From a virus, in the IMG/VR virus record IMGVR_UViG_3300023211_000126, positions 211-64,210 of that record: DNA of 64,000 nucleotides, one strand, 5' to 3'. Positions 17,276 through 18,037 of this stretch are shown piece after piece. A model generated the notes under the pieces. It saw only the letters and a program-made list of their open reading frames with translations, did not search any database and was not told where the DNA came from. A program made the translations under genes and the position numbers. Within the stretch, counting starts at the first letter, position 1, and each line of letters opens with the position of its first letter.

Positions 17276-18037
17276 ATGAGAGTCCTTCATATTGAAAATG
17301 ACGACAATGTTCGTCAATCGATTGACCTCATGCTTCGCGCTGAGGAGATGGTTTGTGAGAGCGCAAACCTCGGTGAGGAAGGTATTGAGCTCGCAGCGAT
17401 CTATGATTTTGACATCATCCTGCTTGAGATAGAACTGCCGGATATGTCAGGCTTCGCTGTCCTCCAGCAGATGCGTACCGTCAAGAAGATCAAGACTCCC
17501 GTTCTTGTCGTCAGCGGCCTCGCTGGGATGAGCGACAAGATCAAGGCGCTTGTGCTCGGTGCCGATGATTATCTGACAAAGCCCTTTCACAAAGATGAGC
17601 TTGCCGCTCGTATCCGCGCGATTGTTCGTCGTTCGAAAGGCCATGCGCAATCCGTCATCGCGACAGGCGATCTCGTCGTCAATATCAATCAAAACACCGT
17701 TGAGATTGGCGGGAAAGCCGTTCATCTGACCCGTAAAGAATATCAGATGTTGGAGCTTCTCTCCCTCCGCAAAGGCAGCGTGATCACAAAGGAAATGTTC
17801 CTCAACTATCTCTATGGTGGCATGGACGAGCCGGAGCTCAAGATCATCGATGTATTCGTCTGCAAACTGAGAACAAAGCTCGCGGCTGCCAGTAATGGGC
17901 GCAATTACGTCGAAACGGTTTGGGGGCGCGGCTACATGCTACGCGAAAACGGGGATTACATGCCTCGTCGGTCAGGTCGCTTCGTGCCGCCCGTGATTTC
18001 TGTCGATGCCTCTCACGCTCTGGAGGCGAAACAGTGA
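17276..18037 (+). CDS. ctrA: CtrA cell-cycle master regulator homolog with Glu at phospho-acceptor position 51
   Basis: [92 protein letters not shown]; codon 51 (17426-17428) is GAG. Confidence 0.95.

Follow-up and report, generated by a model that had tools for sequence, protein, structure and literature searches.

A provirus-encoded, full-length CtrA homologue with glutamate at the phospho-acceptor position and a predicted pseudo-receiver

We have identified a ctrA-like gene in the provirus IMG/VR record IMGVR_UViG_3300023211_000126 whose product is a full-length, CtrA-derived response regulator of the OmpR family. The protein carries glutamate in place of the phospho-acceptor aspartate (Glu51) and asparagine in place of the second aspartate of the acidic pocket (Asn8). 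The analysis covered 64,000 bases of the 64,210-base record, referred to here as the window. In alphaproteobacteria the cell cycle depends on CtrA as its essential master regulator, whose control through phosphorylation and proteolysis is textbook knowledge; where the kinase is to be bypassed in the laboratory, D51E is the standard allele. The explanation we lean towards is that the phage-borne protein is a CtrA-derived factor with a pseudo-receiver, which would dimerize and bind CtrA sites on the host chromosome without a signal.

A sequence-only reading of the window had proposed that the open reading frame is colinear with CtrA from Met1, and this was borne out by alignment to the Brucella CtrA receiver 4qpj, the best solved relative, and by family searches. 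Pfam domains Response_reg (PF00072; residues 3-114, 83.2 bits) and Trans_reg_C (PF00486; residues 146-222) were recognized, giving the receiver and OmpR-type winged-helix layout of CtrA over the full length. The NCBIfam CtrA equivalog NF045991 matched at 349.6 bits over profile positions 1-223 of 224, and the runner-up family, PmrA, scored 158.5 bits. The motif ETVWGRGY is present. Identity to cellular CtrAs is 70-72%, as opposed to only ~36% for the OmpR-family paralogues of the matched genomes, and the phage protein groups with the CtrAs of Hyphomicrobiales.

The Glu7-Asp8 pocket and Asp51 of the CtrA family are replaced in the phage protein. The 4qpj alignment places Asn8 within a pocket that reads END and Glu51 at the end of beta3, both as had been read from the DNA alone. 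Position 8 of CtrA is an aspartate that we take, by homology, to be metal-binding. Asp8 and Asp51 occur together in all 119 other best homologues from a search among 5.8 billion proteins, in 80/80 best genome loci (one genome per species), in 80/80 best metagenome loci, and in 30/30 loci sampled across the class, where 147 of 201 genomes gave a match (a tally that counts the unpublished genome G043, from which no sequence was taken). Every one of the best 80 genome and best 80 metagenome matches is a cellular CtrA with no more than 72% identity to the phage protein. Across 83 unique cellular CtrAs, aspartate is invariant at both positions.

We find it hardly credible that Glu51 arose through faulty assembly or sequencing of a metagenome contig. 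GAG is one base from GAT or GAC, and the phage CtrA stands alone in its own 90% cluster, as opposed to the portal and DnaB proteins, for which other contigs supply relatives at 90% identity or more. Codon 51 is also without an independent read in the public runs, whose near-identical pieces cover only 17439-17707, 17835-17985 and 18047-18220. This read check comprised two DNA runs with small shares, mostly conserved ctrA parts of other organisms, and no RNA run holding the gene was found. Against an error stand the independent second change in the pocket, Asn8, and the same pairing, described below, in six further viral loci and in 10 library representatives besides the query. The public pieces are short contigs from plant and moss metagenomes that differ from the window at 3, 1 and 6 positions over the three intervals, respectively. 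Close relatives of the phage ctrA, as judged from these contigs, thus occur in those samples; the same runs contain many cellular ctrA fragments as well.

With a recognizable receiver domain and glutamate in place of the phosphorylatable aspartate, the phage protein can be classed from its sequence as carrying a pseudo-receiver. The available text of two reviews, PMC4395418 and PMC12632262, describes glutamate as the commonest replacement of the acceptor aspartate in receivers that lack it, at 26% of aspartate-less receivers in PMC4395418, and PMC12632262 adds that asparagine commonly replaces the second acidic residue. Asn8 and Glu51 match these commonest replacements and thus form a typical pseudo-receiver signature. 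Neither phages nor CtrA are named in the text of the two articles. PMC12632262 also offers the hypothesis, in the part seen, that the acceptor glutamate binds the conserved threonine and lysine. With Glu51 and Asn8, the protein should neither accept a phosphoryl group from ChpT~P nor be open to dephosphorylation through CckA. Kinase independence had been claimed for this protein, and its residues do appear incompatible with use of the CckA-ChpT phosphorelay; judging from chemistry and from knowledge of the family, independence of phosphorylation is very likely.

The remainder of the protein retains the features of cellular CtrA. Of 151 positions conserved at 95% or more in 83 distinct cellular CtrAs, 125 are unchanged, and the 26 changes are mostly conservative; there is, in addition, a one-residue insert at position 68. 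An AlphaFold2 model built from a 60-sequence alignment had a mean pLDDT of 91 with both domains folded, and the receiver was modeled at 97-98 with its elements running from beta1 (residues 2-6) through alpha5 (106-120). The beta5-alpha5 surface is the usual dimer face of OmpR-family regulators. Residues 94-136, which include this surface and the linker, have zero substitutions at the conserved positions. The claim that the DNA-binding domain is intact also held: besides the PF00486 match, 85/106 residues of the linker and DNA-binding domain (121-226) agree with the cellular consensus, compared with 74/120 in the receiver, and within the recognition helix only one conserved position is changed (K200T). 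Positions of these elements are given in Table 1.

Table 1. Positions of ctrA, its parts and neighboring features in the window
Feature	Position	Strand	Remarks
Repressor with S24 peptidase domain	10299-11093	-	Left of early operon
GapR-like gene	13273-13560	+	Pfam PF10073, 108.1 bits
GcrA homologue	14012-14629	+	Pfam PF07750, 126.7 bits; directly upstream of cassette
Two-gene accessory cassette (helicase/N6-methylase and ctrA)	14631-18034	+	blastn gap relative to provirus G204
Helicase fused to N6/N4 DNA methyltransferase, 874 aa	14608-17232	+	PHROG 16 and 67, Pfam PF01555
ctrA-like gene	17276-18037	+	Full-length CtrA-derived OmpR-family response regulator, 253 aa plus stop
Receiver (predicted pseudo-receiver, aspartate-less)	17276-17635	+	Residues 1-120; PF00072, AlphaFold2 model
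Codon 8, AAT (Asn)	17297-17299	+	Replaces second acidic-pocket Asp; 4qpj alignment
Codon 51, GAG (Glu)	17426-17428	+	Replaces phospho-acceptor Asp, end of beta3; 4qpj alignment
Switch residues	17513-17581	+	Ser80 (17513-17515), Tyr99 (17570-17572) and Lys102 (17579-17581), retained
beta5, alpha5 and linker	17555-17683	+	Residues 94-136; presumed dimerization face
Winged-helix DNA-binding domain	17654-17941	+	Residues 127-222, recognition helix 189-205; PF00486, AlphaFold2 model
C-terminal tail	17954-18034	+	Residues 227-253, unlike cellular CtrA, ends AKQ; pLDDT 52-71, predicted disordered
Downstream gene, 138 aa	18034-18450	+	Family not recognized; GTG start overlaps ctrA stop

The C-terminus departs from that of cellular CtrA. 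At 253 residues the phage protein is about 20 residues longer than the 233 found in 79/80 of the best genome CtrAs, and it ends in LEAKQ, as the sequence-only reading had stated. A C-terminal alanine is the ClpXP-recognized end in Caulobacter CtrA. This terminal alanine occurs in 76/80 of the best genome and 79/80 of the best metagenome CtrAs, and it is present in 9/25 other viral CtrA tails. The divergent tail, which was modeled at low confidence, is the sole basis for a suggestion, and a weak one, that the phage CtrA may resist proteolysis.

We asked how often Glu51 recurs in phage-linked CtrA homologues. A scan of IMG/VR by alignment gave 161 viral stretches with relatives, from which the best 80 were retained, and the 25 loci in which the match begins in the receiver were tabulated. 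The tabulation leaves out the partial loci L025, L033 and L036 and the C-terminal-only loci L038-L089; in most of the other 55 loci the match starts at query residue 87 or later. Position 51 in the 25 loci is Asp in 11, Glu in six, Asn in three, Ala in two, Gly in two and Phe in one. Glu51 therefore does recur, in 6/25 other full-length viral loci. None of these six has Asp8 (Pro, Ser, Pro, Pro, Pro and Pro, respectively), compared with 7/11 of the Asp51 loci.

A broader view was obtained with a HMMER search of 1.84 billion representatives clustered at 50% identity, which returned 1,601 matches at E <= 1e-30. The best 150 and the query were used, and after the 31/151 rows without the receiver N-terminus were dropped, 120 rows (119 representatives and the query) remained. 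Asp8 and Asp51 occur together in 75 of these and Asp51 only in 15, while Glu51 occurs in 11, all of which are without Asp8; the rest have Asn (8), Ala (3), Ser (3), Gly (2), Arg (2) or His (1) at position 51. Glu51 was thus coupled with loss of Asp8 in every case, in the six viral loci as in the 11 library rows. The switch triad (Ser/Thr80, Tyr/Phe99 and Lys102) is intact in 7/10 Glu rows, 3/17 other non-Asp rows and 80/90 Asp rows, counted after removal of three misaligned rows (P0150, P0174 and P0253). The difference between Glu and other non-Asp rows had a Fisher p-value of 0.013, or 0.028 without the query, with kinship among rows ignored. Retention of the triad in the Glu rows is our best indication that glutamate is more than an arbitrary replacement, and Glu51 tends to accompany receivers that, by their sequence, could still reach an active-like state, in line with the hypothesis of PMC12632262 on glutamate bound to threonine and lysine.

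Among the aligned viral sequences, phage CtrAs appear to form a spectrum from canonical proteins through Glu51 pseudo-receivers and degenerate receivers to receiver-less forms. C-terminal-only matches to CtrA were observed in L038-L089 of IMG/VR, in the Roseobacter phages RDJL Phi 1, Phi 2, RDJL3 and RDJL6, and in 21 Rhodobacter capsulatus phage records. When GenBank phages were compared with the whole phage CtrA, no full-length relative above 60% identity was found, save one 4-kb fragment; the DNA-binding domain, at 42-54% identity, matched genes of Roseobacter and Rhodobacter phages.

The phage gene is intact, is under purifying selection and shows no decay. Compared with the nearest viral relative, L010, pN was 0.21 and pS 0.67, and dN/dS was 0.12-0.22, or about 0.15, in six phage pairs in which dS is saturated. 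The relaxed selection on homologues that would mark a decaying gene was therefore not seen. The ctrA GC content of 0.52 (GC3 0.61) is near that of the phage (0.56), compared with 0.66 for GC-rich relatives, which argues for long residence and not for a fresh capture; the open frame was thus kept during amelioration. It might still be supposed that ctrA is a captured host gene, a passenger whose catalytic residues were lost through disuse, given that both pocket residues are gone, that a sibling phage (below) dispenses with the gene and that other phages carry more degenerate or receiver-less forms. The full-length frame and the dN/dS values, the 125/151 conserved positions, the confident AlphaFold2 model and the ameliorated composition make such decay a very improbable account.

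Phylogenetic analysis was carried out on a main tree of 38 rows from which columns 8 and 51 had been removed and the truncated L032 and long-branch L020 and L026-L037 excluded. Phage CtrAs nest inside the Hyphomicrobiales CtrA group (support 94/91), and the window protein is sister to L010 on the best tree (95/77, not starred). The host belongs to the alphaproteobacteria and probably to the Hyphomicrobiales. L010 resembles the window in gene order, with GcrA, CtrA and a homologue of the window's downstream gene. At least six changes between Glu and non-Glu at position 51 were counted on the 38-row tree. The approximately unbiased (AU) test rejected a single clade for six Glu rows including the long-branch L023 (p 0.014), but it did not reject one clade for six neighboring pocket-less forms, namely the window, L011, L013, L014, L019 and L024 (p 0.187), both groups having been chosen by trait after the tree was seen. 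At least two origins of Glu51 are thus supported, and that Glu51 arose separately in the lineage of the window is no more than suggested. A 114-row tree of library representatives had too little support (7/111 branches starred) to carry an independent-pairs test, in which just two pairs were usable. A second CtrA in genome G170 (G170:C3:196551-197267; L205 9468-10280) was considered as a prophage gene and rejected as a chromosomal paralogue. It is 49% identical, has Asp8 and Asp51 intact, lies among metabolic genes and was found in one of the 147 genomes with a CtrA match.

The phage setting that had been claimed for the gene was confirmed. CheckV rated the provirus record as 100% complete, its layout is that of a lambdoid temperate phage, and phage module genes lie on both sides of ctrA. 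The gene lies 17 kb inside the provirus and not in host flank, with the helicase/methylase gene before it, DnaB further on, and terminase and portal genes downstream. A leftward recombination module encodes RecT, YqaJ and a helicase. The rightward early operon runs in the order GapR-like gene, RusA, GcrA, helicase/methylase, ctrA, the 138-aa gene, C5 methylase and DnaB, and is followed by a NusG-like gene, the small and large terminase genes and the portal gene, whose product is only ~43% identical to those of cultured phages. GcrA is an S-phase regulator, and its gene also lies near ctrA in L010, L015, L027 and L037. Relatives of the helicase/methylase are near ctrA in L021, L027 and L036, and the 138-aa downstream gene is 95% identical in the sibling provirus G204 and 40% identical in L010, where it is also downstream of ctrA. 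GapR homologues with 43-54% identity adjoin ctrA in L021 (4499-4759), L022 (4454-4684), L035 (4492-4752) and L023 (3596-3844).

Other features of the window were observed outside the early operon. The NusG-like protein, with a NusG N-terminal domain and a KOW motif, is encoded at 23136-23918, just ahead of the packaging genes, and may serve as an antiterminator of phage late transcription. The right end of the provirus encodes, on the minus strand (59840-62796), an AT3-SGNH acyltransferase together with an ATP-dependent DNA ligase, and the acyltransferase gene may act in lysogenic conversion by altering surface polysaccharide.

Comparison with G204, a sibling IMG/VR provirus of 64,769 bases that is 100% complete and has a 98% identical DnaB, indicated that ctrA is part of a two-gene accessory cassette. 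G204 is collinear with the window over 37,201/64,000 bases at ~87% identity, both ends included, and no CtrA match was found anywhere in it at E <= 1e-5. The alignment stops just past the gcrA stop codon and picks up again with the first codon of the downstream gene, with flanks 75% and 92% identical. The slot of the cassette in G204 is occupied by a 190-aa open reading frame of no recognized family. In the slot after it G204 has another methylase, a DUF4942/N6-methylase gene in place of the C5 methylase (18627-19690). The cassette belongs to a group of 14 or more stretches, each no shorter than 500 bases, that are unmatched in G204 (L286, L289-L292), and a second relative, G205 (60% complete), is also without it. 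By this comparison methylases and regulators are swapped in and out of the early region. Since the cassette is absent from the sibling and the early region, rich in methylases and in host-type chromosome regulators, is variable, ctrA can be regarded as exchangeable cargo outside the core switch and not as a gene conserved in the lineage. Window positions 1-1669 and 62794-63753 are 96% and 98.6% identical to the G204 ends, above most of the interior, which suggests that the two share an attachment site or host flank, or that the end modules are conserved; among the end open reading frames of the window that were scanned, none matched an integrase family.

These results divide the claim of an active phage CtrA into parts that fared differently. 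That the gene is intact, derives from ctrA and is carried by a phage is supported, as is its inability, judged from sequence, to use the phosphorelay; a role in lytic growth, if meant as a need, is not supported, given that a complete sibling provirus is without ctrA.

We searched the window for CtrA sites and found zero perfect TTAA-N7-TTAA motifs, three with one mismatch compared with 6.7 +/- 2.6 expected, hence no excess, and zero occurrences of TTAACCAT. As there is no excess of CtrA boxes and the sibling is without ctrA, the targets of the phage protein probably lie on the host chromosome and not in phage promoters. A protein with altered site preference could conceivably control the timing of the phage's own late genes or lysogeny. 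According to the available text of PMC9437464, host CtrA controls genes of several alphaproteobacterial phages, and K200T and H178Y both fall in the DNA-binding domain of the phage protein. We regard this self-regulation as improbable in view of the site counts and of G204, whose early and late genes follow the same order and which runs without ctrA.

The mechanism that we favor starts with expression of ctrA from the early operon, which would occur on induction or infection. The retained triad, the unchanged beta5-alpha5 face and the CtrA-type DNA-binding domain would together allow the phage protein to dimerize through that face in the absence of a signal, and to bind CtrA-type sites on the host chromosome whatever the state of CckA-ChpT. 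It would then impose or block part of the CtrA program in the host, with the gene acting as optional cargo outside the core circuit of the phage. We infer all of these elements: that the protein dimerizes, which sites it prefers, when it is made, what it targets in the host and in which direction it acts. That Glu51 acts as an active mimic is plausible from the retained triad, dimer face and DNA-binding domain. Partial activation is our preferred direction of effect, held with moderate confidence, since engineered D51E proteins are active in vivo and the triad is retained. A stabilized ctrAD51E caused G1 arrest in Caulobacter (Domian 1997, as cited in the part of PMC8640480 seen), and the available text of PMC6363796 describes an R. 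capsulatus CtrA-D51E that bound its own promoter when the wild type did not. A block of host replication or a rewiring of pili and flagella by the phage CtrA is speculation.

Several points weigh against this explanation, among them the uncovered codon 51 noted above. The family score falls 0.4 bits short of the NF045991 cut-off of 350, and K200T in the recognition helix, together with H178Y, could alter site preference. Related phage CtrAs have Asp, Asn, Ala, Gly or Phe at position 51, such that Glu is not required, and L010, the nearest viral relative, retains Asp8 and Asp51. Glutamate is also the commonest replacement in all aspartate-less receivers, which speaks against active mimicry as the whole story. 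In ChxR, change of the natural glutamate to Asp or Ala keeps DNA binding (PMC4395418, available text), and the title of Siam and Marczynski 2003 states that glutamate at the CtrA phosphorylation site gives essential activity with no increase in DNA binding. The complete sibling without ctrA implies that any benefit is conditional. Lastly, the pairing of GcrA with an active CtrA lacks an obvious logic.

Some of the same evidence would suit a protein of opposite effect, namely an antagonist or decoy that lowers host CtrA activity by occupying CtrA sites, by forming mixed dimers or by docking with ChpT or a proteolysis adaptor. Together with the phage GcrA, such a protein would push the host towards an S-phase-like state that favors replication. 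Mixed dimers are conceivable with a beta5-alpha5 face unchanged at conserved positions, and helix alpha1 (residues 10-22) is largely kept, with SIxLML in all aligned phage forms. The phage, which carries GcrA as well, might conceivably gain more from lower CtrA activity, and the available text of PMC3556154 proposes that phiCbK GcrA switches on host replication functions. The dispensable glutamate of ChxR and the binding result in the Siam and Marczynski title are equally at home here, as are the Ala, Asn and Gly variants kept in related phages, which are expected to be inactive rather than mimics. Glu51 rows, however, preferentially retain the triad (7/10 compared with 3/17), and engineered D51E alleles show at least partial activity in vivo, according to the parts of PMC8640480 and PMC6363796 seen. 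A DNA-binding domain conserved at 80% would be superfluous in a pure decoy, although a competitor for sites would need such a domain. On balance we consider antagonism rather unlikely, though a rival to be taken seriously, and the partially active factor remains the interpretation carried forward below.

The phage protein can be compared with several known systems. Cellular CtrA of Hyphomicrobiales (NF045991) shares its architecture, colinearity from Met1, 70-72% identity, the DNA-binding domain and the beta5-alpha5 face; the phage form differs in Asn8 and Glu51, the insert at 68, the ~20-aa longer tail ending in AKQ and its phage-borne, optional nature. The engineered ctrA(D51E) of Caulobacter crescentus and R. 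capsulatus has the same acceptor substitution and has been used, in the text available, as a phosphorylation-independent and partly active form. In contrast, the phage form is natural and phage-encoded, is without Asp8 and has 24 further changes at conserved positions. ChxR of Chlamydia and HP1043 of Helicobacter likewise have a receiver fold without the acceptor aspartate, and ChxR, with glutamate at that position, is a DNA-binding dimer without phosphorylation (PMC3960148 and PMC4395418, available text). They differ in being unrelated OmpR-family lineages that are chromosomal and essential, and the ChxR glutamate is not needed for DNA binding.

Phage-encoded regulators offer further comparisons. 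Roseophage RDJL Phi 1 gp37 (151 aa, annotated ctrA) and its relatives in Roseobacter and Rhodobacter phages are also phage-encoded, CtrA-derived DNA-binding proteins, and the available text of PMC6363796 and PMC5026251 places receiver-less phage CtrA beyond control by the host phosphorelay. Those proteins are without a receiver and 42-54% identical over the DNA-binding domain, whereas the window protein keeps a folded receiver, the switch residues and the dimer face. GcrA of the Caulobacter phage phiCbK (gp222), proposed in the part of PMC3556154 seen to reset the host replicative state, is similarly a master regulator of the host cell cycle in a phage-borne copy, and the window also carries GcrA. 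It belongs to another protein family and a virulent phage, and lost phosphorylation is not an issue for it. GcrA of phiCbK-like phages, receiver-less phage CtrA and phosphorylation-independent OmpR-family regulators are thus already published. In the literature searched, with supplements outside the search, no report was found of a full-length phage CtrA, with or without a pseudo-receiver, or of the Asp51 state of such a protein; CtrA is absent from the main text of PMC8224337, and the subject of PMC9437464, as far as its available text goes, is host CtrA acting on phage sites.

A broader reading joins these results: temperate phages of Hyphomicrobiales would have repeatedly captured ctrA, converted it to a signal-independent allele and traded it in methylase cassettes as a cell-cycle lock. 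We put it forward tentatively and consider it possible but doubtful. The conversion, in that reading, would consist of an acceptor glutamate and loss of the metal-binding aspartate with the triad and dimer face intact, and its product would be a viral "constitutive allele" of the cell-cycle master regulator, following a logic like that of viral oncogenes, an equally tentative proposal.

The finding carries less weight than was first claimed for it, as glutamate is the commonest pseudo-receiver replacement and receiver-less phage CtrA has already been published. The natural Glu51 set nevertheless co-varies with loss of the metal-binding aspartate and with retention of the switch residues, and natural D51E-like phage CtrAs would supply an evolved, phosphorylation-independent set for studying the role of the phosphate. 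Because ctrA is optional and moves in one cassette with a methylase gene, natural phage pairs with and without ctrA exist for comparison. If the explanation we lean towards is true, the phage gene would be a concrete case of a virus seizing the uppermost control point of the bacterial cell cycle.

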